A stretch of DNA of 48,052 nt from Thermoprotei archaeon (GTDB lineage: Archaea > Thermoproteota > Thermoprotei_A > EX4484-217-1). This document shows positions 1,417 through 41,055 of this stretch, one piece after another (the first letter of the stretch is position 1; the number at the start of each line of letters is the position of its first letter). The stretch spans positions 1-48,052 of the forward strand of contig JAGGUY010000001.1 of the NCBI GenBank assembly GCA_021158265.1. Reading direction: 5' to 3'. Position numbers and translations under genes: made by a program. The notes under the pieces are model-generated. The model was not told the origin of the DNA. It made no database searches and saw only the letters and a program-made list of their open reading frames with translations.

Positions 1417-1431
1417 AACCCATAGATTGTT

Positions 1432-11153: not shown

Positions 11154-11198
11154 GGTGAGAGAATTAGTAAAGAAAGGGTTTAAAAAGTTTTAGCTAGG

Positions 11199-11456
11199 TT
11201 ATTTAGGTGCTTCAACAACCTCAACCGTCTTCCTACCAGCAGACCATGCAACAGCCTCTAAGATTATCAGTAAGGCTATTGTTCCGATGTGAGCGCCAAT
11301 GTCCGCGGGTACCTCAACAGCCTTGGATTCTGGAAACACTGGTGCTTCGGCATATCCCAACGAAATTATTGCCGTAGCCAATAGAAAGACTATTACCAGC
11401 CATATTATAAAGGTAACGTCTCTCTCCTTACCTTTTACTTCGTACTTTACTGACAA
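11199..11456 (-). CDS. small hypothetical membrane protein (2 predicted TM segments)
   Basis: 85-aa ORF with two hydrophobic stretches. No recognisable motif. Confidence 0.4.
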   Translation of the reverse strand: MSVKYEVKGKERDVTFIIWLVIVFLLATAIISLGYAEAPVFPESKAVEVPADIGAHIGTIALLIILEAVAWSAGRKTVEVVEAPK

Positions 11457-11595
11457 AAATCTTCACCAGTAATATATGCTCTTAAACTAAATATATAAAT
11501 TTTAACCAACAATGCTCTTGAAGATAGAAAAATTTTTTTATCTTAGAACAAAACATTAATAACGGAATTTATCACCTTAAGTTCGGGGTATTGTC

Positions 11596-20691: not shown

Positions 20692-21297
20692 TCATCGTTT
20701 GAAAAGGTTCTTTAACTCGTTATATTTTTTTAGATAATACTTACCTTTATTTGTAGCTCTATATAGACCTTTAACTCTCCTATCGCCATCTATTCTCTCT
20801 TCAATGATCATTTCCTTTTTCATTAGTTCCCTAAGATGCTTATTAAGCCATGGAGTGTTTGTTTTCAAAACGTATAGAAGCTTTGTTTTAGTAATTCCAT
20901 CCAATGAAGCTGAAATTATTTTAGCATAGATTTCATACTTGGAAATTTGAGGTCCAAGCTCTTTTACAACGAGGCTTCCATGCTTATATGTGAAACCGTA
21001 TTTTTCTATATTAGGTATTCTTTCGAACTTACTACTATTAATTATGTCGTTTAAGCTATTGTATGCTTTTAAAACCTTAGCACCATACCTTGTCATGTGG
21101 TATCTTTTCCTGCGATTCACTAAAACTCCCTTAATGAGCTTTCTCTTTATCATGAAGTTAACGTATTTCTGAACCTGCCTATAGTTCAAATTTGATTCTC
21201 TAAGTATTTGAGAAATAGAAGCGCCTGAAGCACATGTTTTAAGGATATCCATTACAATTTCTAAACTACTCCTTCGGCATCCTTTATAAGATGTCAT
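20692..21297 (-). CDS. transcriptional regulator with two winged-helix (ArnR1-like / HTH_45-like) domains
   Basis: 201 aa. Two similar segments: ILKTCASGASISQILRESNLNYRQVQKYVNFMIKRKLI and IISASLDGITKTKLLYVLKTNTPWLNKHLRELMKKEMI. Divergent from the methyl-transfer cluster. Confidence 0.65.
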   Translation of the reverse strand: MTSYKGCRRSSLEIVMDILKTCASGASISQILRESNLNYRQVQKYVNFMIKRKLIKGVLVNRRKRYHMTRYGAKVLKAYNSLNDIINSSKFERIPNIEKYGFTYKHGSLVVKELGPQISKYEIYAKIISASLDGITKTKLLYVLKTNTPWLNKHLRELMKKEMIIEERIDGDRRVKGLYRATNKGKYYLKKYNELKNLFKR

Positions 21298-21328
21298 ATT
21301 TAAACAAAACCGCTACTTTTAGGTAAAC

Positions 21329-21456
21329 TTACTGTTACAGTATTATTAAACGTTCCTATATAGCATTACTGTTTCTACAAGAACAAACCCATTTTTAAAC
21401 TTTGCCTCAATAATAGAACCAAATAAGGTTTATTTGTCGCGCAAAAATTTACTGTT
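21329..21456. promoter_or_regulatory. intergenic control region with three TTACTGTT repeats, one inside a TACTGT-T-ACAGTA palindrome
   Basis: TTACTGTT occurs at 21329-21336, 21366-21373 and 21449-21456. The palindrome tactgttacagta is at 21330-21342. The region lies between the divergent regulator gene and the core-MetE gene. Confidence 0.3.
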
Positions 21457-21471
21457 AATAGGTTATCGGAA

Positions 21472-22470
21472 GTGTTATTCGAAAAACTCGTTACAAGCCA
21501 TGTAGGCAGTTTTCCCCTAACACATAGCTGGGATAATGTTAAGAAAATATTTAAAGAACTTATCAATTTAGGCATAGATATTCCACCATATCCTCAAATG
21601 AGAAGTTTCATAGACATATATCTTGAACCATTAGCTAAAGCCGGAATAATTTCCCTGAAGGGTTCAAGATACTTTGCCGATGAAAAAATTCTCCGCGACA
21701 CTAAGCCTCCTACAGCTGAAATCCCTGAAGCAAAAATAGTCTCTGAAATCTCAGAGAAAATAGGGTTTAAGGGAATTCTTAGAGCACCCATAACTGGGCC
21801 ATTCACTCTATCTTCAAGAATATATTTTTCCGAAAGTACAAGCCTTTCAGCAACAGCTATGGCCAAAAAGGATCTTGTACTAAACTTTTTCGCAGAATAT
21901 GTTAGGTCTTTTGTGAAGCAAATGGTTAATTTAGGCTATAAATTCATCGTCATAGACGAGCCTATGCTTGCAAACATTATCGGACGAAGAATAATATTGT
22001 ATGGATATAGAGCTGAAGACATAGTAGAAGTTTATTCAAAAATTCTCGAACCAGCAAAGCATAAGGGTGTAATTAGGGGAACACATGTTTGCGGAAGACT
22101 CCCTAAGAGGCTCCCAGAAATACTTGCTGAAGTTGATGTTTTAGATGTTTTAAACCATGAATTTAAGGATTCTCCAGAGAACTTCGAGGTTTTCACCAAA
22201 GACTTGCTTGAAAAACACGATAAAATACTTAGCCCAGGAATAGTTAGCTCTAAAAGGCTTAGAGTTGAAAGTTTCGAGGAAACATACTCGTTACTCTCAA
22301 GAATTCTTAATAAGTTTGGAGAGAGAGCAAATATTATTTCAGCAGATTGCGGTTTCGGGGCTCTTAGGACAGGAGAAGTTACAGAAGAGGAAGCCTATGA
22401 AATAGCTAAGAAAAAGCTTGAGCTGATAGTTAAAGTTGTTAGGAAAGCTAATGAGGAGTTTAAAGGGTAA
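21472..22470 (+). CDS. single-domain (core) MetE-family homocysteine methyltransferase
   Basis: 332 aa, GTG start. MetE catalytic-domain motifs: HVGSFPLT, VIDEPML, a zinc site THVCG ... NHEF ... ADCGFG. The size matches archaeal core-MetE and not two-domain MetE. Confidence 0.8.
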   Translation: MLFEKLVTSHVGSFPLTHSWDNVKKIFKELINLGIDIPPYPQMRSFIDIYLEPLAKAGIISLKGSRYFADEKILRDTKPPTAEIPEAKIVSEISEKIGFKGILRAPITGPFTLSSRIYFSESTSLSATAMAKKDLVLNFFAEYVRSFVKQMVNLGYKFIVIDEPMLANIIGRRIILYGYRAEDIVEVYSKILEPAKHKGVIRGTHVCGRLPKRLPEILAEVDVLDVLNHEFKDSPENFEVFTKDLLEKHDKILSPGIVSSKRLRVESFEETYSLLSRILNKFGERANIISADCGFGALRTGEVTEEEAYEIAKKKLELIVKVVRKANEEFKG

Positions 22471-22471
22471 A

Positions 22472-24211
22472 ATGGTAAAGGTAACTGTTAAGCCTCAGAA
22501 TGTATCAGTAGATGTTAGTAAAGGAACATTGCTAATTGAAGCTATAAGAAAAGCTATTCCATGGTTTCCATCCCCATGCGGAGGCTTAGGTATTTGTGGT
22601 AAATGCAAAGTCAGAATAATTAAGGGGAAACTTAGTAAACCTACATCAAATGAGAAATTACTAAACATCTTACATGAAGGATTTAGATTAGCTTGCCAAA
22701 CAACAGTGTTTGATGACACTATTGTTGAAATATCTTATAGAGAACCTATAGCTTTCCCAACAATTTCGACTATTGAAATTAAAGTTCCTGTTAAACCGTG
22801 GATTTCTTGGAGGACCTTTGAATCCTCAAAATATTCTAAACAGTTCGACAAGTTTGTTCTTGAAGAAGTTGGTGCTAGGTATTTAAGCTATGCCGCAGCA
22901 AGGGAGTTAATTAACGTTAAACTAAATGGTAAAGCTACCATTATGGCTTATGGAGAAGCAGTCTATAGAGTTGATACATACCATTTTGAACCCTTAGGCT
23001 TAGCTGTTGACATTGGAACAACAAAAATAGCCGGATACCTTATTGATTTAAGTACAGGCACTACTTTAAATGAAGGATTTACGCTAAATCCCCAACTAAA
23101 ATACGGTGACGATATTGTTTCTAGAATGACCGTAGCCCTAATGGATAAGAGGAAGCTTTATGATATGAGAAACATTACTTTAAAATCAATTGAGGATTTG
23201 GCTAAGAAGCTGGCTTTAGAAGTGAAGAAACCTGTTACAAACATTACTGCTATATCTATTGTTGGAAACACTGCAATGCATCATATTCTTTTAGGGCTAG
23301 ACTTAAGTGGTATAGCATTTGCCCCCTATATTCCAAAAGAATCATCTCCAATAATCGAGTATGGAGGTAACTTAGGATTTAAAATCCTAAGAAGAACCAT
23401 GGTTTACATAGCCCCTGTTATTTCAGGATATGTTGGTGGAGATGCTGTTGCAACATTATTGACAATTCATTATTTAAATCCCAAACTACCCTCCTTAGTC
23501 ATTGATGTAGGTACGAATGCTGAAATAGGCTTATTTTTAAAGGACAAAATTGTTGTTGCTAGCGCGCCAGCGGGACCAGCAATCGAGGGTCATGTTACTT
23601 CAGGTTTAAAGGGGGTTCAAGGAGCAATATATGATGTTGAAGCTGAGAAAGTAGGCGATAATGTTAAGTTTAACGTAAAAGTTCTCGGTGAAACGGAGCC
23701 TTCAGGAATTAGTGGAAGTGGTGCAGTAAGTATCGTATCCGAACTTTTAAGAATAGGGGCAATTACGGCTACAGGCAAACTTAAAATAGGAAATTATGAT
23801 GAAAGAGGTGTAAGGTACGTTAAGATAGTTGATTCTAAGAAACCCATAGTATTTACTCAAACTGACATTAGGGAGATTCAGAAAGCTAAGTCAGCAATTC
23901 AAACTACATGGCAATTGATGCTTGAGGATGAAGGTCTATCTGAAGATGATTTAGAATCTGTTTTCATAGCCGGAACTTTTGGTTCGTATCTAAAACCCAT
24001 ACATGCCCAAAGGATAGGTCTCATACCTAAAGTGGATTTAGATAAGATATTCATTATCGGTAATGCTGCCGGAGCCGGAGCTAAGTTAATGTTGATAAAT
24101 GGGGAGGCTAGAAGGAAAGGTGAGGAAATAGCTCTTAAGGCTGAACACAGAGTTTACGCTTCTACTGATAGATTTAGAAAGTTATGGATTAAAAATTTAA
24201 ATTTCAAATAA
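22472..24211 (+). CDS. RACo-type reductive activator of corrinoid proteins (2Fe-2S ferredoxin domain plus ASKHA/DUF4445 ATPase domain)
   Basis: N-terminal plant-type ferredoxin motif PCGGLGICGKCKV...LACQT. ASKHA-like segments DIGTTKIAGYL, GNTAMHHILLGL and IDVGTNAEIG. ATG 22472 follows the upstream stop (22468-22470) by one base. The ORF-track start 22436 is probably too early. Confidence 0.8.
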   Translation: MVKVTVKPQNVSVDVSKGTLLIEAIRKAIPWFPSPCGGLGICGKCKVRIIKGKLSKPTSNEKLLNILHEGFRLACQTTVFDDTIVEISYREPIAFPTISTIEIKVPVKPWISWRTFESSKYSKQFDKFVLEEVGARYLSYAAARELINVKLNGKATIMAYGEAVYRVDTYHFEPLGLAVDIGTTKIAGYLIDLSTGTTLNEGFTLNPQLKYGDDIVSRMTVALMDKRKLYDMRNITLKSIEDLAKKLALEVKKPVTNITAISIVGNTAMHHILLGLDLSGIAFAPYIPKESSPIIEYGGNLGFKILRRTMVYIAPVISGYVGGDAVATLLTIHYLNPKLPSLVIDVGTNAEIGLFLKDKIVVASAPAGPAIEGHVTSGLKGVQGAIYDVEAEKVGDNVKFNVKVLGETEPSGISGSGAVSIVSELLRIGAITATGKLKIGNYDERGVRYVKIVDSKKPIVFTQTDIREIQKAKSAIQTTWQLMLEDEGLSEDDLESVFIAGTFGSYLKPIHAQRIGLIPKVDLDKIFIIGNAAGAGAKLMLINGEARRKGEEIALKAEHRVYASTDRFRKLWIKNLNFK

Positions 24212-24240
24212 AAACTACCGACTAAGCCTAGGAGAGGTGA

Positions 24241-25233
24241 TTGCGTGAAATGTTATTCTCAAGGGAACCTTTAAGACCATTTAGATTCAAGGTTCCTCAG
24301 AAAACGTTTAGAATAGGAAGTGTCATTTTTGGTGGAGAACCTGGAGAGAGACCTACCGTTCTTGTGGGTAGCATTTTTTACCTTGGGGACAAACTTGTTA
24401 TAAATCATGATGAAGGAGTTTTCGATAAGGAGAAAACGAAGGAAGCAATAAAGTATGCTGAAGAGGTAGCTGAGAAGTACTCTTTACCCTTAGCTATAGA
24501 CTTGGTTGCTTACTCTGAAAAAGCTATGGAAAACTATGTTCCATTTGTAGCTGAAGTAACGGAGGCACCGATATTTTTAGATGGTGTTGAGGAGAAGGCT
24601 AGGATTGCCGCGTACAAAATATCTCACGAAATAGGTATTACTGAAAGGGTTATTGGAAACGCAATATATACTCACTCAAAAGAGAGCGAACTAAACGCCT
24701 TAAAAGAGTATGAAATAAGGAACGTAGTACTTATGGCATTTGATGTAGCAAACCCTATGAAAAGCATGATGCCTAAGGATAGATTAGAAATTCTGAAAAA
24801 CCAGCTCATACCTAAAGCTGAGGAAGCACAAGTAAAACAGCCTTTAGTCGATGTAGTAGTTCTGGATCCAGCTTCAATAGCTATTAGTGCAGCATCGGTT
24901 TTGAAAATAAAGGAGGAAACGGGGTTACCTGTAGGTTGCGCACCAGCTAACGCCTTAGGTCCCGTTACTAAAGCAGCATTTGGTGTCGAAGGTATGAGCG
25001 GAATACATGGTGGAACGGCAGTTTTTCTCCAAATGTTTGGAACAGACTTCATATTCTACGGACCAATAAGAAGAATAAAGTATGTGGCGCCAGCAGTTGC
25101 AGTAGCTGATGCTTACCTAGCTTATCTAGCGAAATTCGAAGGAAAAAGGCCTCCTAAGAAGCATCCATTCAATACATTACTTAGGAAGCTTCAGAGAATG
25201 TTTACAGGAATTGAAGTATGGCAGCCAAAATAA
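24241..25233 (+). CDS. MtrH-like methyl-tetrahydro(methano)pterin:corrinoid methyltransferase
   Basis: 330 aa. FGGEPGERPTVLVGSIFY...GVFDKEK, GLPVGCAP and IFYGPIRRIKYVAPAVAVAD closely follow the MtrH pattern. TTG 24241 or ATG 24250 may be the start. Confidence 0.85.
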   Translation: MREMLFSREPLRPFRFKVPQKTFRIGSVIFGGEPGERPTVLVGSIFYLGDKLVINHDEGVFDKEKTKEAIKYAEEVAEKYSLPLAIDLVAYSEKAMENYVPFVAEVTEAPIFLDGVEEKARIAAYKISHEIGITERVIGNAIYTHSKESELNALKEYEIRNVVLMAFDVANPMKSMMPKDRLEILKNQLIPKAEEAQVKQPLVDVVVLDPASIAISAASVLKIKEETGLPVGCAPANALGPVTKAAFGVEGMSGIHGGTAVFLQMFGTDFIFYGPIRRIKYVAPAVAVADAYLAYLAKFEGKRPPKKHPFNTLLRKLQRMFTGIEVWQPK

Positions 25234-26099
25234 ATTATGAGAGAGTAGAAATCCTAAGTGAACTGATAGGTAAATTAGGATTAGAAACGATTTACTTTAT
25301 CGAAGAGAAAGATAAACAGCTAGAAGCTATGAGGAATCTTTATGCTAAAACAGGACATGTAGGTTATGTTTGTTTATTAGCTGTTTCAAATGCTCTAATA
25401 AGCTATAAGCTTTCGGTGAAAGGAGAAGAGTACTGGTTAACATTTTCTAAAGAACTTTCTAAAACAAAACCTTCACTAAATTACGCCTTAGAAAACATAG
25501 TTAGATTTCTTAGAAAACACAGATTAAATGTCATTAATTTGGAACAGAAAATCAATAGGTTAAGAAGGCTTTATTCATCAAACATAGTGCATAAAATCTT
25601 TAACAACCCTGAAGCCTATGCGAGAAACATAGTTAAACTTTGGAAGGATATAAGTGAAGCACTTCATACCGACCCTAAATCTAAGACCATAGTTTTCTCT
25701 ATCAAAATGTTTTACTATGCATACTATGCTTCAACAGATATTCGCATAAGATTGCCCATGGAAATACCTATACCTGTTGACTTCAGAGTTTCAATAATAA
25801 GTTTAACTTCAGGGTTATTACAATTTAAGCGCTCTATGATGTTCTCAGATAAAGTAAAACTACTTCTTAGTAAATATGGTGATGCTGTAAGAGAAGCCTG
25901 GAATGAAGTAAGTGAAAGAGCAAAAGTTCCTCCTCTGAACCTTGACGCCCTAATTTGGGTTTTTGGAAGAAACGTCACTCTTCAATGTTCTAAAGAGAAG
26001 ATTGTACGTAAAACATTCGAATACTTACGAGAACTCTTCGATAGAGAACCTGACACATTAATGAAGAAACTTGTTTATGAGTTCTTCAAATACTGCTAA
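25218..26099 (+). CDS. archaeal 8-oxoguanine DNA glycosylase/lyase (AGOG family)
   Basis: SNALISYKLSVKGEEYW, KTIVFSIKMFYYAY, EIPIPVDFRV and VPPLNLDALIWVFGR match the pattern I recall for Pyrobaculum AGOG. The start overlaps the mtrH-like stop by 16 nt. Confidence 0.85.
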   Translation: MAAKINYERVEILSELIGKLGLETIYFIEEKDKQLEAMRNLYAKTGHVGYVCLLAVSNALISYKLSVKGEEYWLTFSKELSKTKPSLNYALENIVRFLRKHRLNVINLEQKINRLRRLYSSNIVHKIFNNPEAYARNIVKLWKDISEALHTDPKSKTIVFSIKMFYYAYYASTDIRIRLPMEIPIPVDFRVSIISLTSGLLQFKRSMMFSDKVKLLLSKYGDAVREAWNEVSERAKVPPLNLDALIWVFGRNVTLQCSKEKIVRKTFEYLRELFDREPDTLMKKLVYEFFKYC

Positions 26100-26218
26100 T
26101 TGAATAGGATATTACATCTAGTAATATTTTTCATTACGCTAAACTATCCTATGTAATGTTATCATTAATATTTAAAAGCCTCTCACAGTCCATAATACGT
26201 TAAAAGGCTAATGGTGCA

Positions 26219-27358
26219 TTGGCTATGGTAGTGCCGGGGATTAAGTGCCAACCCATACCTCCATGTCCTAAGAGAATGCTCAATGGTCCATGTGGTGGTG
26301 TTAGAGAAGGCTATACATGTGAGGTTGATGGTAGAAGATGTGTATGGATTGATGCCTTTATAGAAGCTAAAAGAAGGGGTAATCTTAAGCCATTCACTGA
26401 AGTACTTCTTGATGCTAATTTTAAAGTTAGAGATTATAAGCCAAAAACAAGAGAACCAAAAAGTAAGGTCATGAAGCTCCTTTTAGAGAGAAAGTATATT
26501 TTAGCTTTTGAAGTTGAAACCGGAAGAAACATTGACTTAACAAGGTTTAAAGAACTTTCACGAGAACTTTCACCATATTATGATACTTTAACATTTACAG
26601 ACAATCCTGTGGGAAGCATAGAAATAGACCCTTTAGCTCCTGCAATAATTTCTCAAAACAATGGTGTTGAATCAATACTTCATGTTACATGTAAGAATAG
26701 AGATAGAGTTGCTTTAACATCCTACCTTATGGCAGCAGCTGCCGCAGGAATTAGAAACATAATAGCTGTTACAGGAGATTGGCCCTTCCTATCAGGAGCT
26801 AAATACATGTTTCCATCATTCGATTTAGATGCTGTAAGACTAATTTACTTAGCAAGACTTATGACGGATCTTCATGTTGATTTCTCAGGTAGAAGAATTG
26901 AAGGTAATCCTTTCTTCCATGTTTTTACAGCGTTTAATCCGCATTTTGCACCTTTAGAGCTGGAAGTGCTTAAGTTAATTAAGAAGATTAAAGCTGGAGC
27001 TGAGGCTGCATTTTCACAACCAATATATTCAGTATTAACTTGGAGGAAAGTTAAGAAGTATTTTAAAGAGTATGGTATTAAAGTACCCGTGGTTGTAGGG
27101 CTAATGCCTGTTAAATCTATTAAAATGGCTAAGGTTCTAATGAGAGAGTTAGGAATCCATATACCGGAGGAATATGTTAGGTTCTTAAATGGCAATAAGA
27201 GTTATGAGGAAATATACAGTTTTAATATTGAATATTTTAGAAAGCTTGCTGAAAACCTTATGGCAGAACATGATGGTATCAGCGGATTTCATGTGTTAAC
27301 ATTTGGAGATTTAAAGCTTGCAAGCGAGCTAGGTAGGTGTTTAAGGAAATTAAGATAG
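26219..27358 (+). CDS. methylenetetrahydrofolate(-like) reductase with fused N-terminal MetV-type Cys-rich domain (MetV-MetF fusion)
   Basis: N-terminus CPKRMLNGPCGG...C..C (MetV / MTHFR_C-type motif), followed by a MetF TIM-barrel-like body (TFTDNP, HVTCKNRDR, IIAVTGD). TTG 26219 or ATG 26225 may be the start. Confidence 0.75.
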   Translation: MAMVVPGIKCQPIPPCPKRMLNGPCGGVREGYTCEVDGRRCVWIDAFIEAKRRGNLKPFTEVLLDANFKVRDYKPKTREPKSKVMKLLLERKYILAFEVETGRNIDLTRFKELSRELSPYYDTLTFTDNPVGSIEIDPLAPAIISQNNGVESILHVTCKNRDRVALTSYLMAAAAAGIRNIIAVTGDWPFLSGAKYMFPSFDLDAVRLIYLARLMTDLHVDFSGRRIEGNPFFHVFTAFNPHFAPLELEVLKLIKKIKAGAEAAFSQPIYSVLTWRKVKKYFKEYGIKVPVVVGLMPVKSIKMAKVLMRELGIHIPEEYVRFLNGNKSYEEIYSFNIEYFRKLAENLMAEHDGISGFHVLTFGDLKLASELGRCLRKLR

Positions 27359-28321
27359 TAACAATGTGATTTCATAATCTAGCTTCTCAAGAAACTGATA
27401 TAGTTTTTCAAACGGTATTCTAGCCCCCGCAGCTAATGGATGACCTCCCCCAGACCCTTCAAATTCTAAAGCTATTCTTCTTAATAATATGTTTAAGTTT
27501 ATTCTCTTATCGGAGCATCTAATACTTAGAATCGCTATGTTCCTTTTAATTTCAATAGCCACACCTACAGGCTTTCCTAAATAGGCTTTAACATAAGTTG
27601 CTGCCCTAGTTAAACTACCTTTAGGGTTAATAACGTATGCTAAATTTTTTAATGCCTTAGCTTGCTTCTTAATATCTAACCTCATTTCTTCCTCGCTAAC
27701 CGATTCCATGAGAGCTCTCACAATAAGCTCGCTCATTTCGCTAGGAAGTCTATTTTCAGAAAGATGTTTCACTACCCTTCTTTTAAATTCATAGAGCTTT
27801 CGTGCACCCTCTAAGCCTTGGCTTAGAACTCCAGCTTCGAAATATATTGTTCTCTTATCCCAGTTTTCTAAAGTCTTTTTAACCCATGGTGTTTCATCGA
27901 GATAGTCCGATATAGCTCCATATATTGCAACCCTACTCATATCCTCGTCAAGAAGGTTTTCGAAGAACTTAAATGTTAACTCTGAGGTCGAAACTTTCTC
28001 GTCATGAACTATGTTCATAGGGAATTCTTTAAGCTTAATACTTAAGGGCTCAGGATGGTGATCAATATATGTTATTTCAACGCCTTTCCTAGATAAGTAT
28101 CCTATGAGCTTTAATAGATCTTCTAAATGTTTTTCGCTCAACGCAACATCAAGTATGAAAACTTTATTTTCATGTTTAACATTGTGAAGAAGATCTTCGT
28201 AAAGCCCTACAGGATGTGTGAAAAACACTTTCCCATTACCTTTAAGTGTAACTAGTGTTAATGCTGCTGAAACTATGCCATCAGCATCTCCATGGGCGAA
28301 AATTATTGCTGACAAAAACAA
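27350..28321 (-). CDS. DHH/DHHA1 family phosphoesterase (NrnA / RecJ-like)
   Basis: Motifs HGDADG, ILDVA, IDHHPE and GSGGGHPLAAG. Confidence 0.8.
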   Translation of the reverse strand: MFLSAIIFAHGDADGIVSAALTLVTLKGNGKVFFTHPVGLYEDLLHNVKHENKVFILDVALSEKHLEDLLKLIGYLSRKGVEITYIDHHPEPLSIKLKEFPMNIVHDEKVSTSELTFKFFENLLDEDMSRVAIYGAISDYLDETPWVKKTLENWDKRTIYFEAGVLSQGLEGARKLYEFKRRVVKHLSENRLPSEMSELIVRALMESVSEEEMRLDIKKQAKALKNLAYVINPKGSLTRAATYVKAYLGKPVGVAIEIKRNIAILSIRCSDKRINLNILLRRIALEFEGSGGGHPLAAGARIPFEKLYQFLEKLDYEITLLLS

Positions 28322-28438: not shown

Positions 28439-29596
28439 GTGTCTCCGATAAAAGCTAATTTAGCTATCATAATTGCTGCCTTAGTGTTGGGGCTAATATT
28501 AGGGGCAAGTTTAACGTACTTTGCGGTACCATTAAAGGAAGGAACGACAACAACGTTAACTACTACGATAACTCTAAAACAAACCCCATCAACGATCATT
28601 AAAACTAAAACGGTTCTTGCAACAACAACCATTAAACCAGAATATCCCATTACAATTGTTGATGCCTTAGGCAGAATTGTTGTAATTAAAGAGGAACCCA
28701 AAAGGATAGTAACTTTATCTCCAGCTATAACAGAGGATGTTTTTGCCTTAGGTTTAGGTAAATATGTTGTAGGTGTTGATAGTTTTTCAAACTATCCGCC
28801 AGAGGTTATTAAGTTAAAGGATGAAGGGAGAATAGCTGATGTAGGAGGGTATTGGCAGCCTGATTTAGAGAAAATTGTTGAATTAAATCCTGACTTAATA
28901 CTCGCAGATGCTGGTGCTCATGCTAAACTTCGTGAAAAATTCATGGAGCTGGGATTAACTGTGGTTTATGTTAAGGGTGGTTCAGCAAGTTCATTAGAGG
29001 ATATACTGTCGGATTTAGGCTTAATAGCTCAAATATTTCATGTAGAGGAGAAGGCTGAAGAAGTTTCTAAGGAATTACTAGCACAAATACAAGATGTAGA
29101 AGAGAAACTAACTAGAGCTAATGCAACCAAGGTTAAGGTCCTAGTGCTTCTAGGTCCACCATCATGGGGCTACTGGAGTGCTGGTTCCGGAACATTCATT
29201 AATTACGTTATAAATGTTGCCGGAGGAGTGAATATCGCTGCAAAATATCATGGATGGGTTAAGCTAAGCTTAGAGGACATAGTTTCCGAAAACCCCGATG
29301 TAATAATTGTTTCCCTTATGGCTTCATCTGAGGAGGCTAAGAAAGTAATCGAAAACATAATGTCCTCAGAACTTGCCAGCACTAATGCTGTGAAAAAGGG
29401 GAATGTGTTTGTTCTTATAAACGAGGCAAACGATGTACTTATGAGGCCTGGTCCGCGAATCGTTGAAGCATCTAAGATCATGGCACAAATACTTCACAGT
29501 GAAGTTTTCGGCGAAATTTCGAGAAACGACGTTATTAAGCTAAGCCCTACGCTCTCTCATAACACTTATGTCGGTGAAAGTATAGCTATCGCATAG
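28439..29596 (+). CDS. ABC transporter substrate-binding protein, cluster A-II (BtuF/FhuD-like; cobalamin, siderophore or heme type)
   Basis: GTG start, N-terminal anchor, Thr-rich linker, then RIVTLSPAITEDVFALGL and PDLILA, typical of the PF01497-type fold. Confidence 0.75.
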   Translation: MSPIKANLAIIIAALVLGLILGASLTYFAVPLKEGTTTTLTTTITLKQTPSTIIKTKTVLATTTIKPEYPITIVDALGRIVVIKEEPKRIVTLSPAITEDVFALGLGKYVVGVDSFSNYPPEVIKLKDEGRIADVGGYWQPDLEKIVELNPDLILADAGAHAKLREKFMELGLTVVYVKGGSASSLEDILSDLGLIAQIFHVEEKAEEVSKELLAQIQDVEEKLTRANATKVKVLVLLGPPSWGYWSAGSGTFINYVINVAGGVNIAAKYHGWVKLSLEDIVSENPDVIIVSLMASSEEAKKVIENIMSSELASTNAVKKGNVFVLINEANDVLMRPGPRIVEASKIMAQILHSEVFGEISRNDVIKLSPTLSHNTYVGESIAIA

Positions 29597-29609
29597 GGTT
29601 TAAAGCACA

Positions 29610-30644
29610 ATGCATAACCTTAAGCATTATTTTAAGTCGAAGAAGAAGAAATTTTTTATTACACTCTCTCTTTTAATTATTTCTCTAGTATTTACACTAA
29701 TGGTTTCATTAAGTGTAGGTTCTCTAAGTATAAGTGTTGATAAAGTATTCTTAGCACTAACAGGTTCCTTACAAGATAAAAGGCTGTCTCACATAATTTT
29801 AGATATAAGGCTCTCGAGAACTTTAGCGTCAATCTTTATTGGAGCGTCTTTAGCTGTTTCAGGAGTTTTGATTCAGAGCGTCACTAGAAATGCCTTAGCC
29901 GAACCGTTTTTATTAGGGCTATCTTCTGGGGCATTAGCCTTTATGGCTTTAGCCATACTTATTATTCCATCAGCTATTTTATCAATACACTACATATCAG
30001 CTATTGCTTTTGTAGGGGCTTTAGCGGCTTTTGCCCTCACGTTAATGCTAAGCGAAGCTGTAGGGGGATCAGCTACGAGCCTTATACTTGCAGGTATTGC
30101 TGTAACTTCGGGGTTTTCGGGAATTTCTAGTTTATTAGCCTTCATAGTTCAGGCGAAACTTAACAGACCATTCCTAATTCTCCTCCTAGGGAGTTTAGCT
30201 CAAATCTTAAAAGCACAAGTAATAATGTTAGCTTCAGTTTTCACGGTAGGGTTTATTGCTTCCATAGCTCTAGCTAAGAGATTGAATGCGATAATGTTTG
30301 GTGATGAACATTCGCTTCAGTTAGGATATAATCCCAGAACAACAAGGCTTATTTCGTCCCTTCTTGCAGCGTTACTTACAAGCGTTAGCGTAGCGGTGGC
30401 CGGGATAATAGGCTTTATAGGGTTAGTGGTGCCTCATATAGCTAGGTTAATGATAGGGAACGATAATAGATTCGTAATTCCGCTTTCAGCACTCTTAGGC
30501 TCAATAATACTTTGCCTCTCAGATATTTCTGTAAGGTTGGCTTCTGAAGGTTTAGCTATAGGCGAAATACCTGTTGGAGCAGTAACTAGCGCATTAGGGG
30601 CTCCATTTTTTGCCTACCTATTAATGGCTAAGGTGAAATCCTAA
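29610..30644 (+). CDS. FecCD/BtuC family ABC permease
   Basis: 344 aa, about 9-10 TM segments. Contains LSRTLASIFIGASLAVSGVLIQSVTRNALAEPFLLG and GFIGLVVPHIAR. Confidence 0.9.
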   Translation: MHNLKHYFKSKKKKFFITLSLLIISLVFTLMVSLSVGSLSISVDKVFLALTGSLQDKRLSHIILDIRLSRTLASIFIGASLAVSGVLIQSVTRNALAEPFLLGLSSGALAFMALAILIIPSAILSIHYISAIAFVGALAAFALTLMLSEAVGGSATSLILAGIAVTSGFSGISSLLAFIVQAKLNRPFLILLLGSLAQILKAQVIMLASVFTVGFIASIALAKRLNAIMFGDEHSLQLGYNPRTTRLISSLLAALLTSVSVAVAGIIGFIGLVVPHIARLMIGNDNRFVIPLSALLGSIILCLSDISVRLASEGLAIGEIPVGAVTSALGAPFFAYLLMAKVKS

Positions 30645-31418
30645 ATGTTCTGTGTTAGTGTAGAAGAATTGGCTTTTAAATATAAGGGAGGGTTTGAGCT
30701 TGGAAAGGTGAGTTTGAGATTTTGCGAATCGGAAATTACAGCGGTATTGGGTCCTAACGGTGCTGGTAAGACTACTTTTCTTAAATGTCTAGCTAGAATT
30801 CTTAAACCCTTAGAAGGCGTTGTGTACATTGGCAATAAGGAACTATGGAGTTTAAGTTTAAATGAAGTAGCAAAAAGCATCGGTTTTTCAGAAGTAGAAG
30901 TACCTCAAGGATTCAATGTTAAAGTAGTAGACTTCATATCCACAAGTAGATATCCTCACATGAGAACTTTTTGGGAAACCGAGAATGATGTGGAACAAAT
31001 TATTGGGTCTATTAAGAGACTGAAGCTGGAAAGCTTATCTCAGAGAAAATTAGAGGAATTAAGTAGTGGGGAATTCCAAAGAGTAATCATAGCTAAAATC
31101 CTAGCAAAAAACCCTAAGATACTTCTTTTAGACGAGCCAACACTTCACTTAGACATAAAATATCAATTAGAAATTCTAAAGACTATAAGTGAAATAACCA
31201 AGGAGAAAAAATTAGTGACAATAATTACTCTTCACGATTTAAAATTGGCCTCACTATTTGCTGATAAAGTGGTTCTTTTGAAAAATGGCAAAGTAGTAGC
31301 TTTTGGCAAACCAAATGAAGTATTAACTCCGGAGAACATAGAAAGAGTTTACGAGGTAAAAGTAAAGGTTATAAGAGATAAGGAGGCAGGTATGATAATT
31401 ACGCCCTTAATTAAATAA
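30645..31418 (+). CDS. ABC transporter ATP-binding protein (BtuD/FepC type)
   Basis: Walker A GPNGAGKTT, signature LSSGEFQR, Walker B LLLDEPTLHLD. Confidence 0.9.
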   Translation: MFCVSVEELAFKYKGGFELGKVSLRFCESEITAVLGPNGAGKTTFLKCLARILKPLEGVVYIGNKELWSLSLNEVAKSIGFSEVEVPQGFNVKVVDFISTSRYPHMRTFWETENDVEQIIGSIKRLKLESLSQRKLEELSSGEFQRVIIAKILAKNPKILLLDEPTLHLDIKYQLEILKTISEITKEKKLVTIITLHDLKLASLFADKVVLLKNGKVVAFGKPNEVLTPENIERVYEVKVKVIRDKEAGMIITPLIK

Positions 31419-32142
31419 TCTTAGCTCCTATAAATGAAAGCTTAATGCTATTTAGCTTATTGAATTCTAAGAGTGCATCTTTAATCTTGTCTTTCTTAAT
31501 CAAATTGCTTATAATTATTAGGCGTTCATAATCGTCAACAGTGAAGTCATCCACCCTATACATTATAGCTGAGCACGTTGTAGTTATTACAGCGCTTATT
31601 AATCCCTGATTTGAGAAAATATCTAACGAAGAGATTATGTCCTTATGTGAGAAGAAGCAATGGGGTGAAGGATGAGTATGCGCCATAACATACGCTTTTA
31701 TGAACGGAATTCTAACCTTATCTATTTCTCCTTCAAGAAGAACACCTATTTTCTTAGGAATTATTAGTAGCATATACTCTACGTGTTTCATGTCAGTTAC
31801 TCTAGCTTTATCCTTAAGTAACGGTATAATATTGTTCATGAAAACTTCAAGAGCGCGTTCATACATGCTTCTCCATAATATTGCATGATGTGGTTCGTTC
31901 GAGAAAAACAATATTTTCAATCCCTCCTTAGGTGGGGGGAGTCTTCTATTTTTGAGAGCTTGAGGTATGTAGACAGTAACTTGTCCGCCATTCCAGCTAT
32001 GGTATTCGTAAAAATTTTCACTAATGTAAAAAGTGTTTAAACCATGTATTTCCATAAGATCCTCACAAAATGATATTATATTTCCAGCTATGGCTAACCA
32101 TTTTATACTCTTATTTTCAACTATGAAATTTTCCTTCTTCAT
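31411..32142 (-). CDS. JAMM/MPN+ motif protein with an uncharacterised ~110-aa N-terminal region
   Basis: HTHPSPHCFFSHKD fits HxHx7Sx2D exactly. The upstream GVLLEGE could supply the catalytic Glu. Confidence 0.55.
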   Translation of the reverse strand: MKKENFIVENKSIKWLAIAGNIISFCEDLMEIHGLNTFYISENFYEYHSWNGGQVTVYIPQALKNRRLPPPKEGLKILFFSNEPHHAILWRSMYERALEVFMNNIIPLLKDKARVTDMKHVEYMLLIIPKKIGVLLEGEIDKVRIPFIKAYVMAHTHPSPHCFFSHKDIISSLDIFSNQGLISAVITTTCSAIMYRVDDFTVDDYERLIIISNLIKKDKIKDALLEFNKLNSIKLSFIGAKII

Positions 32143-32155: not shown

Positions 32156-33319
32156 TCATAATGATTCTAGATATAGCTTCTTTATCTCCTCTCTTGTCGG
32201 AACCTTTGGATTATTATAGACTAATGGTCTCATGTAGTCAAGCACGTCATCTACAAACTTGCCGATGTCCTTCTCTGAGACACCAAAATCGCTAAGTCTA
32301 ACGTTTAAACCTATACTGTTTCTTAGCTTAAGTATATAATCATATACTGACATTGCTATGTATCTTTGAGGCATTGTTGTAACTTTTAATCCCATCACCT
32401 CGGCTATTTCTACAAAATCTTCTATTGCTGCGTCTAGCGTGAACTTAAGCCATGCTGGTAAAAGCGCCGCTAACCCCATACCGTGGTGTACTTTCTCGTA
32501 ATGCGCGCTTATGGGATGTTCCATAGCGTGACAAAGAGCTGTTCTGGACTGATCTATAGCTAAGCCTGCCATCATGCTCGCCCATAGGAGCCTCGTTCTT
32601 GCTTGAATGTTTATTCCTCTCTTAACTACTACCTCAATGTTTTCTACAATGTTCCTTATGGCTTCGGCTGCGAACATTCTGGCTAACCTATTCGTTCTCC
32701 TGCTAACATATGATTCGAGAGCATGAGCTAAAGCGTCAAAAGCTGTAGCAGCAGAGAGTGTTGGTGGTAGTGTAAGTGTTGTTTCTGGATCTAGAACGGC
32801 AACTTTGGGATAAATGAGTTTGCTGACAACAGAAACTTTCGCTTTTCTTTCTACATCTGTTATTACAGCGTACTTGTTGACTTCGCTCCCTGTACCGTGT
32901 GTTGTAGGTATTGCAACTATAGGGTAAGCTTCTGAAAACTCTTTCTTACCTCTCAAGTAATCAGTAAGTTTTCCTCCGGAAGCCAATGTTGCTGCTACAG
33001 CTTTTGCTGAATCAATTGCGCTACCTCCACCTAACCCTATGAAAAGGTCGCAACCGTTCTTCTCAGCGAAGGCAATGGCTCTTTCTACTTCATCTGATCT
33101 AGGATTTGATGAGATGTCTGTGAACATGCAGTATTTAAGCCCTGCTTTTTCTAAGCTTACACGCAAAGTACTATAGTATCCGTACTTTATCATTGAGCCT
33201 CCACGAGTCATTATAACCATGGCTTTAGCTCCGAGATTATCAATATGCTCATGGACTTTCGATAGAGAGCCTCTTTCAAATATTATCTTGGTGGGTAAGC
33301 TGAACTCTATACTAAACAT
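32156..33319 (-). CDS. iron-containing (group III) alcohol dehydrogenase
   Basis: 387 aa. Contains GLGGGSAIDSAKAV, PTTHGTGSE and the His-rich metal site HALESY...CHAMEHPISAHY. Confidence 0.85.
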   Translation of the reverse strand: MFSIEFSLPTKIIFERGSLSKVHEHIDNLGAKAMVIMTRGGSMIKYGYYSTLRVSLEKAGLKYCMFTDISSNPRSDEVERAIAFAEKNGCDLFIGLGGGSAIDSAKAVAATLASGGKLTDYLRGKKEFSEAYPIVAIPTTHGTGSEVNKYAVITDVERKAKVSVVSKLIYPKVAVLDPETTLTLPPTLSAATAFDALAHALESYVSRRTNRLARMFAAEAIRNIVENIEVVVKRGINIQARTRLLWASMMAGLAIDQSRTALCHAMEHPISAHYEKVHHGMGLAALLPAWLKFTLDAAIEDFVEIAEVMGLKVTTMPQRYIAMSVYDYILKLRNSIGLNVRLSDFGVSEKDIGKFVDDVLDYMRPLVYNNPKVPTREEIKKLYLESL

Positions 33320-33393
33320 AAAACAAATACACCGAAGATAGATAGATGTTTTAGGAGAATATTAATCTTATTCTTGCAATCTTGCTTTGAAAA

Positions 33394-34758
33394 TTAAATA
33401 GTTTTATTATAAGCTGTTATGGCTTTAACGAATTTTCCATATCCTCTTTCTATCTGAAGTTCTCTATCAAGAATTACTGGAGTTCCACGTATAATGACTG
33501 TAGTAGGCCATCCGTAGAGTTCCATACCCTCGTAAGGTGTCCACGGATTCTTATAATGTAGATCTTCGGCTTTTACTTTCTTTTTAAACTCAGGATCTAT
33601 TATTAGCATATCAGCATCCGCACCTACGGCTATTTTGCCTTTCATAGGTAATCCAAAAATCTTTGCCGGATTATACATGAGAACTTCTATGAGTCTTTTA
33701 AGTGATAGTATTCCCCTCTTAAATCCGTAAGTAAAAACTACCGGTAATAATGTTTCTACTCCAGCAACACCTCCCCAAGCTTTCCAAATGTCCTCCCATC
33801 CAACATCTTTTTCCTCCCTACTACCAGGCGCATGGTCTGTTGTAACAACATCTATTAGACCGTTTGAGAGTCCTTTCCACAGAGCCTCTACATGCTCCAT
33901 AGATCTAAGAGGAGGATTCATTTTAAGTAAGGGCCCCCATTTTTTAACGTCATCATATGTGAAGAGTAAGTGATGTATGCAAACTTCTCCAGTAATATCT
34001 AGTCCGTGGGTTTTAGCGTATTTTAAAACATCTACAGCGTAGCTTGTCGTTATATGGCATAAATGCAGCCTGCCGCCTGTATATTCTACGTATCCAAGCA
34101 GTTTTTCCATAGCAACCTTTTCAGCTATAGGTGATCTTGAGAGATGATGAATTACGGGATCCTTACGCCCCGTTTTCATAGCTTCACTAATTCCGTCCTC
34201 AAGTACTGCTTCATCTTCTGCATGAACTGTCACAAGAATATCAAGCTCTTTAGTTAACTTAAGCATTTTTATGAATACATCATCGGTCGCCATATAAGGT
34301 CGGCATGTAAACATTTTATAAGCTCTTATACCTCTTTTAACAAGCTCAGGTACATTGTTTATATTCTCAGATTTTATAAAGCCTCCCTGAATCGAAAAGT
34401 CTGTGAAAGCTTCTTTCTCGCCTACTTCTATGTAGTGATTTAGGATTTCAACATTGTCTATATGGGTGTCTAAAGGCATGACGATAACTGTAGTTACCCC
34501 TCCAAAAGCGGCTGCAAGAGTTCCGTGGTAAAAATCTTCTCTATGCTTAAACCTTGGATCATAAATGTGTGCATGAACATCTATTGCCCCGGGAAGAACA
34601 AGCTTACCCTTAGCATCTATTGTTATTTCGGAATGCTCACTTACTTCCTTAGAGATACTGACAATTTTTCCCTCCCTAACACCTATTTCCCCCTCAACAA
34701 CACCCGATAATAACGCTATTTTCGCATTGATAATTTTTAGGTCAAGACTTTTACTCAT
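33394..34758 (-). CDS. cyclic amidohydrolase (dihydropyrimidinase / hydantoinase / allantoinase / dihydroorotase family)
   Basis: 454 aa. Contains PGAIDVHAHIYDP, GTLAAAFGGVTTV, AYKMF (candidate carboxylated Lys), VHAEDE, LCHITT and TDHAP. Confidence 0.8.
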   Translation of the reverse strand: MSKSLDLKIINAKIALLSGVVEGEIGVREGKIVSISKEVSEHSEITIDAKGKLVLPGAIDVHAHIYDPRFKHREDFYHGTLAAAFGGVTTVIVMPLDTHIDNVEILNHYIEVGEKEAFTDFSIQGGFIKSENINNVPELVKRGIRAYKMFTCRPYMATDDVFIKMLKLTKELDILVTVHAEDEAVLEDGISEAMKTGRKDPVIHHLSRSPIAEKVAMEKLLGYVEYTGGRLHLCHITTSYAVDVLKYAKTHGLDITGEVCIHHLLFTYDDVKKWGPLLKMNPPLRSMEHVEALWKGLSNGLIDVVTTDHAPGSREEKDVGWEDIWKAWGGVAGVETLLPVVFTYGFKRGILSLKRLIEVLMYNPAKIFGLPMKGKIAVGADADMLIIDPEFKKKVKAEDLHYKNPWTPYEGMELYGWPTTVIIRGTPVILDRELQIERGYGKFVKAITAYNKTI

Positions 34759-34790
34759 GGTTAAACAAACCTCTACACTTCATTTATTAG

Positions 34791-36584: not shown

Positions 36585-36871
36585 TTCTGTAGCACCTTAG
36601 AAGGACAGATTATGTTAAGAAGTATCAATTGCTGTTCTTTTTAGACTAAATTTACCTTGCCCATATTTGAGTTTTATAGTTCATGAAACCGATGGTTTAG
36701 CTTACTGCTTAAGATAAATGCTTATTTAAAAGCTTATTGGAAAGAACAAGCATTTGAAATATTCATCTTTTAAAAATTCTCTTTAAACATGAACTTCCAA
36801 ACATTCTTAAAATGAACAATACATGGTTATTCAGCAAAATTATTTCCCATAATAGCATATCAGAAATATAG

Positions 36872-38278: not shown

Positions 38279-38281
38279 ACT

Positions 38282-39181: not shown

Positions 39182-39246
39182 GGAGAATCACTAGCGTATT
39201 CTTTGGAAGATTAAAAAAGTTATTTTACACTATGACTTATCTAAAC

Positions 39247-39531
39247 CTACTTTTTACTCTTAGTTTTCTCCATTATTTCCTGAAGTATTTGTTCTTTAGT
39301 TTTACCTTCTGTTTCTATACCTAAGCTCTTGGCTAGCTCAATTATTTTCTCATCGACGTTCTCCTCAGCCTTACTTTGGGGTTCCTCAAATATTCCCTTT
39401 GAAGCTTTTTCAAACTCTCTCTTAGCTTCACCTATTGCTCTAGCTAGTTGAGGCAGTTTCTGGGGACCCCAAAGTATTAGTAAACCTATAAATATTAGAA
39501 TAAGGATCCATTCCCATGATGTTATTACCAT
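39247..39531 (-). CDS. tatA: twin-arginine translocase subunit TatA/E
   Basis: 94 aa. One N-terminal TM segment followed by GPQKLPQLARAIGEAKREFEKA and an amphipathic helix. Confidence 0.8.
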   Translation of the reverse strand: MVITSWEWILILIFIGLLILWGPQKLPQLARAIGEAKREFEKASKGIFEEPQSKAEENVDEKIIELAKSLGIETEGKTKEQILQEIMEKTKSKK

Positions 39532-41008: not shown

Positions 41009-41055
41009 ACAGAGAAACCCCCTTTTACACCATAATTTTGCCTTACATTCTTATT

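Follow-up and report, generated by a model that had tools for sequence, protein, structure and literature searches.

The window analysed here is a 48,052-nt stretch of contig JAGGUY010000001.1 (assembly GCA_021158265.1) from a hot-spring Thermoprotei archaeon. Five co-directional open reading frames (ORFs) on its + strand, at 21472-27358, were called where an earlier note on this DNA had placed them, and Pfam and NCBIfam scans of their products bore out the five gene identities proposed in that note. ORF1 (21472..22470, 332 aa) encodes a core-MetE, a zinc-dependent single barrel for which we propose the role of methyl-corrinoid:homocysteine methyltransferase (the MT2 step). ORF2 (22436..24211, 591 aa) encodes a predicted ATP-dependent reductive activator of corrinoid proteins of the RACo/RamA type, with an N-terminal [2Fe-2S] ferredoxin domain, and ORF3 (24241..25233, 330 aa) a predicted MtrH-family methyl-pterin:corrinoid methyltransferase, proposed for the MT1 step. 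Inside the same operon lies ORF4 (25218..26099, 293 aa), the gene for an AGOG 8-oxoguanine DNA glycosylase, and the last gene, ORF5 (26219..27358, 379 aa), is a MetV-MetF fusion (MetVF), in which a Cys-rich MetV-like domain is followed by a methylene-pterin reductase domain and which is the proposed supplier of methyl-pterin. In order along the cluster, neighbouring genes overlap by 35 nt, lie 29 nt apart, overlap by 16 nt and lie 119 nt apart, and a second, independent metagenome contig of 11.5 kb (L001) carries the same cluster. We consider it probable that the cluster specifies a methionine synthase that depends on a corrinoid, consists of several proteins and resembles in design the three-component methyltransferase systems of anaerobes.

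The ORF1 product was matched in Pfam by a single Meth_synt_2 barrel (PF01717; 35.8 bits against a cut-off of 21) and had no separate N-terminal domain, in agreement with the proposal that this core-MetE lacks the folate-side domain. The zinc site was found to be intact, as had also been proposed: in an alignment of 28 family members H205, C207 and C293 were invariant and E230 was conserved in at least 90% of the sequences. Invariant in the same alignment were S13, Q42 and D162. With residue equivalence to MetE numbering assigned by motif and alignment, these three stand where MetE and the Mes families have the Ser, Glu/Gln and Asp that bind homocysteine, the Gln being as in MesA and MesC (PMC7857596). 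Matches of the family profile in the PDB were confined to the catalytic (C-terminal) domains of MetE proteins (E = 3e-13), and the AlphaFold2 model of ORF1 (pLDDT 96) gave MetE catalytic barrels as the top Foldseek matches (TMq 0.65-0.71). By sequence model and predicted (beta/alpha)8 barrel, ORF1 is thus assigned to the MetE catalytic-domain superfamily. Lower-ranked fold matches were to MesD (3rpd), to URO-D and to an MtaA-like protein of M. mazei (4ay7, TM 0.68), and weak sequence matches to the URO-D and MtaA/MtbA families appeared in Pfam and NCBIfam. These would be expected if ORF1 were an MtaA/MtbA-like methylcobamide:thiol methyltransferase acting on a thiol other than homocysteine; however, the top sequence and structure matches of ORF1 are all methionine synthases, and we give this explanation hardly any credence.

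As delimited by homology searches, the ORF1 family is small, well bounded and mostly found in Desulfurococcales: 155 homologues were present in the 90% database, and only 69 clusters at 50% identity with E <= 1e-30 were found among 1.84 billion representatives. Members come from Thermogladius, Ignisphaera, Zestosphaera, Desulfurococcus, Staphylothermus and metagenome-assembled genomes (MAGs) of Desulfurococcaceae/Desulfurococcales and, among the loci surveyed below, also from Pyrodictiaceae and two MAGs labelled Methanomethylicia. A canonical two-domain MetE was ruled out by the length of 332 aa, the single barrel and a TIGR01371 score of 19.7 against a cut-off of 930 bits. Three archaeal methionine synthase models of NCBIfam gave ORF1 60-67 bits against cut-offs of 258-406, namely 66.8 against 258 for PRK00957, 61.9 against 406 for PRK04326 and 60.4 against 387 for PRK06052. 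ORF1 was 28% identical to P0205, a bona fide PRK00957 member and a core methionine synthase of the methanogen/Asgard type, and the nearest outgroup proteins drift towards PRK00957. Price et al. separated MesA to MesD by identities under 30% and defined MesA by at least 174 bits to METE_METTM (PMC7857596). MesA was taken here to be PRK00957-type by assumption, and the placement relative to the Mes families rests on the NCBIfam scores and one comparison with a PRK00957-type protein. By the identity yardstick of Price et al. the ORF1 family would be separate from the PRK00957-type core synthases; MesD entered the comparison through the fold match to 3rpd. On the assumption made for MesA, ORF1 does not fall into that family, as its PRK00957 score is below the cut-off, and no MtrA was found in the window. 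MesB and MesC co-occur with the CoFeSP (AcsC/AcsD) of the Wood-Ljungdahl pathway, and neither AcsC nor AcsD was found among the Pfam-scanned proteins of the window.

The possibility was also considered that ORF1 forms the catalytic half of a split MetE, or that it is MetE-like and sufficient by itself, and that in either case it takes its methyl group directly from methyl-pterin made by MetVF, while RACo and MtrH serve some other corrinoid enzyme. ORF1 did show a weak Meth_synt_1 match in the Pfam scan, and split MetE has been reported as the sole methionine synthase of most thermophilic or halophilic archaea, with many "core MetEs" reassigned (PMC7857596). However, the halves of a split MetE are typically adjacent (PMC7857596), and no second MetE-like gene was found in the window or adjoining core-MetE in any of the 80 loci surveyed, so that ORF1 is unlikely to be such a half. 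Its score of 61.9 bits against the PRK04326 cut-off of 406, and scores far under the cut-offs of the other archaeal methionine synthase models, also argue against this possibility, which moreover leaves the tight and repeated linkage to corrinoid protein and RACo genes unexplained. We regard it as very improbable.

The domain set of the RACo/RamA family is complete in ORF2, comprising the N-terminal [2Fe-2S] ferredoxin, middle and C-terminal ASKHA ATPase domains (Pfam Fer2 39 bits, Raco_middle 157 bits, RACo_C_ter 206 bits), and the translation contains the motif C48-x5-C54-x2-C57...C87 as well as a DIGTT motif. The NCBIfam scores for AcsV (296 bits) and RamA (146 bits) were both under cut-off. 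Since it falls below both equivalog cut-offs, ORF2 was taken as a member of the RACo/RamA family that is an orthologue of neither. ATP-dependent reduction of Co(II) corrinoid by ORF2 is predicted, with indirect support from the adjacency of its gene to a corrinoid protein gene in most relatives. ORF3 matched MtrH in Pfam (PF02007, 190.8 bits) and scored 286.5 bits in NCBIfam for "MtrH family protein", whose cut-off is 287, and 173.7 bits for the true mtrH equivalog TIGR01114, whose cut-off is 271.4 bits. Its nearest named function in NCBIfam is MtgA, a methyl-Co(III) corrinoid:tetrahydrofolate (THF) methyltransferase, and its closest solved structures are MtrH (8z9u_B, 182 bits) and the methylcorrinoid:THF methyltransferase of D. 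hafniense (6sj8_A, 167 bits). On these scores ORF3 is classed with the MtrH family, but not as the subunit of that name in the Mtr complex; the Pfam scans of the window ORFs turned up none of the remaining Mtr subunit families.

ORF5 matched DUF5981/PF12225 (MetV-like) over residues 12-64 (38.9 bits) and MTHFR over residues 119-364 (100.1 bits). Five Cys are found within its first 41 residues, and MTHFR structures were matched in the PDB. Judged by domain content, it is a methylene-pterin reductase of the MetV-MetF type. ORF4 matched AGOG in Pfam (221 bits) and aligned with solved AGOG structures. Aligned with 7olb, it retains the Lys of ..SIKMF.. and the Asp of PIPVDFR, which are taken to be the catalytic residues, as in Pa-AGOG. 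The first 16 nt of AGOG coincide with the end of MtrH (25218-25233), and AGOG is near MtrH also in loci L003-5, L008, L010, L012 and L017 of the survey. The product looks like a working DNA glycosylase whose gene is translationally coupled to that of MtrH. No part for it in methyl transfer was seen, and it is probably a passenger gene of the operon.

A survey of archaeal genomes for co-occurrence of core-MetE, MtrH and RACo, which the earlier note had called for, was carried out by scanning species-representative genomes with core-MetE. It yielded 80 species-level loci (L002-L081), in which partner genes were sought by tblastn within 10 kb. Linkage was found to be conserved, with a RACo homologue near core-MetE in 40 of the 80 loci and an MtrH homologue in 25; an MttB-family methyltransferase was present in 11, and 52 loci had one or more partners from the corrinoid system. 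The gene orders seen numbered at least seven (written here with arrowheads for orientation, CP being the corrinoid protein gene): MtrH> <RACo <CP core-MetE> (the Thermogladius type), core-MetE> <MttB <CP RACo>, core-MetE> CP> RACo>, core-MetE> RACo> CP> URO-D-like>, core-MetE> CP> MttB>, core-MetE> RACo> alone, and core-MetE> RACo> MtrH>, the order in the window. Because so many orders exist, the linkage appears to be selected rather than inherited as synteny, and since it is kept through rearrangement as well as sequence divergence (core-MetE identity falls to ~40% across the linked loci), core-MetE and its partners are best read as a functional unit. The clustering of core-MetE with corrinoid-system genes is not due to chance. 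In the complete Thermogladius genomes, MtrH, RACo, CP and core-MetE form a bounded four-gene module with unrelated genes on either side. In L010, L012 and L017 the full gene set of the window occurs together with a carrier, and in these three loci the MetVF homologue adjoins MtrH; in the Pyrodictiaceae locus L012, for example, the order is AGOG, a small gene, MtrH, MetVF, <RACo, <CP and core-MetE>. Judged by gene content across the survey, core-MetE, CP and RACo make up the constant core, and the methyl-donor module is variable. MtrH-type and MttB-type clusters were never found together in any surveyed locus.

Several variants of the cluster deserve description in their own right. Core-MetE adjoins an MttB-superfamily methyltransferase and a corrinoid protein in L029, L034-L036, L038, L039 and L044, and also in L013, L055, L064 and L073; in L035, for example, the MttB-superfamily protein has 478 aa (10972-13067). 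RACo is present as well in the MttB-type loci L035, L036, L038, L039, L044 and L064. This arrangement suggests that a quaternary amine or methylamine donates methyl groups directly to homocysteine, in a corrinoid-mediated analogue of betaine-homocysteine methyltransferase. In L030 (10980-14821) and L051 (10995-14939), and also in L027 and L057, core-MetE, RACo and a corrinoid protein are accompanied by a URO-D-family protein of 427-430 aa, which may be a further methyl-donor module. In L074 (8252-14694), and likewise in L065 and L077, a unit of core-MetE and RACo lies amid genes for shikimate dehydrogenase, a GHMP-type kinase and DHQ synthase II, with no carrier or MT1 within 10 kb. This shikimate-pathway setting provides an amino-acid biosynthesis context and was counted in favour of methionine synthesis by the cluster. 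A link between MtrH and core-MetE beyond Desulfurococcales was considered and rejected, as three MtrH relatives, in L082 (Bathyarchaeia), L084 and L086, have no MetE-like neighbour; the 328-aa neighbour in L084 was rejected as a core-MetE relative at an hhalign probability of 1%. In another archaeal lineage, L084 (6308-7906) and L085 (122-1720) have a 227-aa weakly MTHFR-like gene directly upstream of the MtrH homologue, and their neighbours (aconitase, HMGL-like, adenine deaminase) echo genes of the window.

No B12-binding domain had been seen in the five products when the cluster was described, and this held for the whole 48-kb window. Pfam scans of 29 window ORFs revealed no such domain, tblastn of the window with nine corrinoid proteins from relatives gave no carrier (best E = 0.2), and a six-frame scan of the window for DxHxxG...SxL...GG gave zero matches. 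None of the Pfam domains of MetH (PF02574, PF00809, PF02607/PF02310, PF02965) was present in any scanned window protein, and Rfam at the gathering threshold found no riboswitch or other RNA element in the window. The left end of the window could be extended by ~5.5 kb into LysW-type lysine biosynthesis genes, and the carrier was absent there too. The dedicated corrinoid carrier that marks three-component systems is thus not encoded within the window. The 29-nt gap between RACo and MtrH is too small to hold a degraded carrier gene. A 243-aa ORF beside the transporter genes described below (31411-32142, - strand), which has no Pfam, NCBIfam or PDB match, was considered as a new corrinoid binder and rejected, as it has a JAMM/MPN-like HTHPSPHCFFSHKD motif (HxH-x7-S-xx-D); a counterpart in L003 (18775-19515, - strand) keeps the transporter-adjacent position.

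In the relatives the carrier is present. A "gap" of 0.8-0.9 kb between core-MetE and RACo in many loci proved to be an ORF of 213-248 aa, which in nine of nine cases tested was a canonical corrinoid protein with B12-binding_2 and B12-binding domains (99-111 bits) and the DxHxxG base-off/His-on motif. Such a protein is encoded within 10 kb of core-MetE in 41 of the 80 loci, usually directly between core-MetE and RACo. It scores best against corrinoid proteins of the MtgC/MtbC type, and its match of 147 bits to TIGR02082 (positions 645-858) falls in the B12 module of MetH. When placed on a neighbour-joining tree of core-MetE, the carrier is missing in cis from the clade of the window, L001-L004 (core-MetE, RACo, MtrH, AGOG), from L005 and L008 (core-MetE, MtrH, AGOG; no RACo) and from the sister clade L065, L070, L074, L077 and L080 (core-MetE and RACo only), whereas it is retained in several further clades. 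The cluster in the window is a derived form without a carrier in cis. The carrier of the window organism is most likely a canonical corrinoid protein of the MtgC/MtbC type that was lost from the cluster and would be encoded elsewhere in the genome. This is the simplest reading because the modules of bacterial split methionine synthases are often scattered in genomes, with one carrier shared by several MttB-type enzymes (PMC5764234, PMC12478193), and because 28 of the 80 loci have no partner nearby at all.

Downstream of the cluster, on the + strand, three genes (28439..31418) encode a BtuF-, BtuC- and BtuD-like ABC importer (Pfam Peripla_BP_2, FecCD, ABC_tran). The permease has BtuC as its top NCBIfam match, under cut-off at 197.8 bits, and its other matches are to BtuF and to heme and F420-0 transporters. 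BtuF/BtuC homologues adjoin core-MetE in the carrier-less L003, L004, L005 and L008, and the importer probably supplies corrinoid, as candidate substrate, to the cluster.

This conservation of a B12 importer-like system beside carrier-less clusters would also suit a mechanism in which the MtrH-like protein acts on cob(I)alamin, either free or loosely bound, or on a corrinoid carried by core-MetE or MtrH, with core-MetE using methylcobalamin and RACo re-reducing the cofactor. A carrier gene is missing both from the window and within 10 kb in four close relatives and, separately, in the clade of L065, L070, L074, L077 and L080, where core-MetE adjoins RACo; and free methylcobalamin does serve core methionine synthases as a substrate in vitro (PMC7005905). 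The reported Km of a core-MetE for free methylcobalamin, however, is ~240 uM, far above plausible cellular levels (PMC7005905), and since the genes for the modules of such systems often lie scattered over the genome (PMC5764234, PMC12478193) and 28 of 80 loci lack any nearby partner, absence in cis says little. The proteins of the carrier-less clusters, moreover, have no extra domain or insertion compared with their carrier-linked orthologues. Characterised RACo/RamA enzymes act on protein-bound corrinoids, which also counts against a carrier-free mechanism. We consider such a mechanism, with no carrier or a novel one, to be improbable. An equally small chance is given to the reading that methionine is made without any B12-binding-domain carrier in the lineage of the window and, independently, in the L074-type clade, imported corrinoid being held transiently by the MtrH-like protein and/or core-MetE, or shuttled free between them, and reactivated by RACo. 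If true, this would be a minimal corrinoid methyltransferase system and would give RACo a new type of substrate. Of the three options first put forward for the carrier (encoded elsewhere, free cofactor, a new mode of binding), encoding elsewhere is thus favoured, and nothing points to new cofactor binding.

With a carrier protein provided from elsewhere in the genome, the proposed synthase would work as follows. MetVF would reduce methylene-pterin to methyl-pterin, and the MtrH-family enzyme (MT1) would move the methyl group to the Co(I) corrinoid of the small carrier protein. At core-MetE (MT2), the zinc-activated homocysteine thiolate would then take the methyl group from methyl-Co(III) to form methionine, and RACo, with ATP and its [2Fe-2S] cluster, would re-reduce carrier that had lapsed to Co(II). 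Corrinoid would be supplied by the adjacent Btu-like importer. Gene identities, conserved catalytic residues, conserved linkage and the carrier in relatives were observed; which way the methyl groups flow, which pterin is used, which proteins interact and where the carrier gene lies are inferred from them. The relay from MetVF through the MtrH-like protein and corrinoid to core-MetE, with repair by RACo, had been suggested for the window before, and it is well supported by the survey, in which RACo is linked to core-MetE in 40, a corrinoid protein in 41 and MtrH in 25 of 80 loci and all the components occur together in L010, L012 and L017. In vitro, the core methionine synthases characterised so far accept the methyl group of methylcobalamin, and corrinoid proteins are their predicted donors in the cell (PMC7857596, PMC7005905); RamA-like proteins reactivate B12 for those bacterial split methionine synthases that lack the S-adenosylmethionine (SAM)-dependent domain (PMC5764234). 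The pairing of an MtrH-family enzyme with a free-standing B12-domain carrier is also exemplified by 6sj8, the methylcorrinoid:THF methyltransferase.

The flow of methyl groups could nevertheless run the other way, with the MtrH-like protein passing them to the pterin pool from a corrinoid protein loaded by an MttB- or URO-D-type methyltransferase, MetVF oxidising them, and core-MetE acting as a side outlet. Relatives with MttB-type (11 of 80 loci) or URO-D-type methyltransferases beside CP, RACo and core-MetE would agree with such methyl catabolism, as would MtgA as the nearest named function of the MtrH-like protein in NCBIfam, and archaeal mtrH-mttB-CP-activase clusters have been published as systems for demethylation of quaternary amines (PMC9723716). 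The window, however, has no gene for a substrate-specific MT1, and the MtrH- and MttB-type clusters are alternatives, each with core-MetE and none with both, as would fit MtrH serving as an interchangeable donor of methyl groups to the carrier. The presence of MetVF, the lack of a substrate-specific MT1 in the window and the mutual exclusion of MtrH and MttB clusters thus argue for flow from methyl-pterin to the carrier through MtrH. Since core-MetE is the constant acceptor gene in every version of the cluster, methionine would be the common product. Catabolism of methyl groups as the main function of the cluster is unlikely.

Several observations weigh against a corrinoid-dependent methionine synthase of the kind proposed. 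No carrier gene was found in the 48-kb window or its left extension of ~5.5 kb, and the closest relatives L003, L004, L005 and L008 likewise have none in the 10 kb around core-MetE; in L005 and L008 RACo is not nearby either. In 28 of the 80 loci core-MetE has no partner within 10 kb, and MetVF is linked to it in only 3 of 80. Corrinoid is a putative substrate of the BtuFCD-like importer, and the relay role proposed for this core-MetE family comes from comparative genomics. MtrH-type enzymes can catalyse methyl transfer both ways. Reconstructions published for similar archaeal clusters have MtrH feeding methyl groups into the pterin pool (PMC9723716).

Functionally, the closest known system is the three-part split MetH/MtgBCDE of Phaeobacter inhibens and Ruegeria pomeroyi with its RamA-like reactivation (PMC5764234, PMC12478193). 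It likewise has a separate homocysteine methyltransferase, a pterin methyltransferase, a carrier with B12-cap and B12-binding domains, and an activase of the Fer2 plus DUF4445 (RamA/RACo) type; its carrier is common with MttB-family methyltransferases, and its genes are partly dispersed. It differs in that its homocysteine module is of the MetH/BHMT type (PF02574), whereas that of the window is a MetE-type barrel (PF01717), and its pterin module is Pterin_bind (PF00809), whereas that of the window is MtrH (PF02007). The host in our case is, moreover, an anaerobic hyperthermophilic archaeon, and its window has no carrier gene in cis. With MetH itself the proposed system has in common the four functions of zinc-dependent homocysteine activation, methyl-pterin binding, a B12 carrier and Co(II) reactivation. 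In contrast to MetH, these functions lie on separate polypeptides, and the proposed reactivation is driven by ATP through RACo instead of by SAM-dependent reductive methylation. The cluster had been described as a non-homologous analogue of MetH made up of unrelated proteins. This is correct for the homocysteine and reactivation modules but not for the other two, since MtrH is related to the pterin module and the relatives' carrier to the B12 module (TIGR02082, 147 bits): MtrH shows 26% identity to the methyl-THF-binding domain of MetH (Schroeder & Thauer as cited in PMC7005905), and the MtrH homologue P0400 matches Pterin_bind as well as MtrH in Pfam.

The single catalytic barrel of MetE type, the lack of a folate-side domain and the conserved Zn and homocysteine residues are shared by ORF1 with MesA, MesB and MesC (PMC7857596) and with the core-MetE of Dehalococcoides (PMC7005905), and a Gln at the position of Glu484 is shared with MesA and MesC. 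ORF1 differs from the known Mes families by its 28% identity to a PRK00957-type (MesA-like) protein and by scores far off all NCBIfam cut-offs. The predicted donors of those families are MtrA for MesA and CoFeSP for MesB and MesC, whereas the family of the window is linked to an MtgC/MtbC-type carrier, RACo and interchangeable MtrH, MttB or URO-D modules. Three-component systems, such as MtgB/MtgC/MtgA with RamA in Desulfitobacterium, the O-demethylases and the methylamine systems of methanogens, similarly consist of an MT1, a corrinoid protein, an MT2 and an ATP-dependent activase. Their final acceptor, however, is THF, tetrahydromethanopterin or coenzyme M, and not homocysteine reached through a MetE-type MT2, and the proposed flow from methyl-pterin to carrier is the reverse of that of MtgA. 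In the Mtr complex (MtrA-H) of methanogens, too, an MtrH homologue methylates a corrinoid from methyl-pterin, and MesA is predicted to draw on that pool; unlike there, the carrier MtrA is absent from the window and ORF3 is under the mtrH equivalog cut-off. By membership, the cluster is classed as none of MetH, canonical MetE, split MetE, Mtr complex or PRK00957-type core synthase.

Upstream of the cluster a divergent gene (20692..21297, - strand) encodes a 201-aa protein of the Sso10a/HTH_45 family with two winged-helix domains (Pfam HTH_45, NCBIfam Sso10a_fam). It occupies the same divergent position in L002-L005 and L008 and is a candidate for regulating the cluster. Between this gene and core-MetE, a divergent promoter region of 174 bp (21298..21471) contains three copies of TTACTGTT, at 21329, 21366 and 21449, and a conserved TATA-like AAGGTTTATTTG. 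The whole window has 7 copies of TTACTGTT against 2.8 expected, and TTACTGTT and the TATA-like AAGGTTTATTTG are partly conserved in L002-L004. The TTACTGTT repeats are a candidate operator for the divergent Sso10a/HTH_45 protein. At the other end of the cluster a DHH/DHHA1 phosphoesterase gene, weakly RecJ-like (27350-28321, - strand), is convergent with MetVF and overlaps it by 9 nt; its position is kept in L003 and L004. Further away, at 889-4024 (- strand), a homocitrate-synthase-like gene and genes for the large and small subunits of an aconitase were found, and lysine-type genes run on in L089 (10001-16265: Iso_dh, semialdehyde dehydrogenase, AA_kinase, LysW, LysX-like). Together these look like a lysine (or arginine) biosynthesis cluster of the alpha-aminoadipate (AAA)/LysW type, from which the organism appears to be biosynthetically capable. 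Two adjacent genes for MoeA-type molybdopterin molybdenum/tungsten transferases lie at 7832-11153 (- strand), one of them fused to a PBP_like solute-binding domain. On the far side of the importer, an Fe-dependent alcohol dehydrogenase, two amidohydrolases and an adenine deaminase (32156-38278) are followed by TatC and a Bmp/PnrA-type nucleoside ABC transporter (38282-43303), and the gene content of this region (32156-43303) points to purine salvage.

Corrinoid proteins have been proposed before as the source of methyl groups for core methionine synthases (PMC7857596, PMC7005905). What is new is the particular set of partners of this core-MetE, comprising a dedicated carrier, RACo and the MtrH, MttB or URO-D modules. 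No account of a core-MetE/CP/RACo/MtrH cluster was found in the literature searched, which left most subscription journals uncovered, so that an earlier description is possible. Price et al. (2021) mention neither MtrH nor RamA (PMC7857596), Berghuis et al. described it as unclear what MtrH does in Ignisphaera and further non-methanogens (PMC6421429), and in the study of Culexarchaeia mtrH-mttB-CP-activase was interpreted as quaternary-amine demethylation, with MetE not mentioned in the main text (PMC9723716).

The physiological donor of core methionine synthases has been an open question since a methylcobalamin:homocysteine methyltransferase was found in methanogens. The published proposals of MtrA and CoFeSP as donors rest on phylogenetic distribution, whereas here the evidence is physical linkage in many gene orders. 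The old question is thereby turned into a concrete four-protein system that can be reconstituted, with its genes available in Thermogladius genomes including that of T. calderae 1633. If the proposed synthase is correct, it would offer a function for the "orphan" MtrH genes of non-methanogenic archaea (PMC6421429) and would be an archaeal counterpart of the modular MtgBCDE/split-MetH system of marine bacteria, with different folds in two of its four modules. Genes of this core-MetE family carry the annotation "cobalamin-independent methionine synthase", T. calderae 1633 being one example. Despite this annotation they probably make their hosts dependent on B12 for methionine, which would change predictions of auxotrophy and cross-feeding for the archaea of hot springs and vents.

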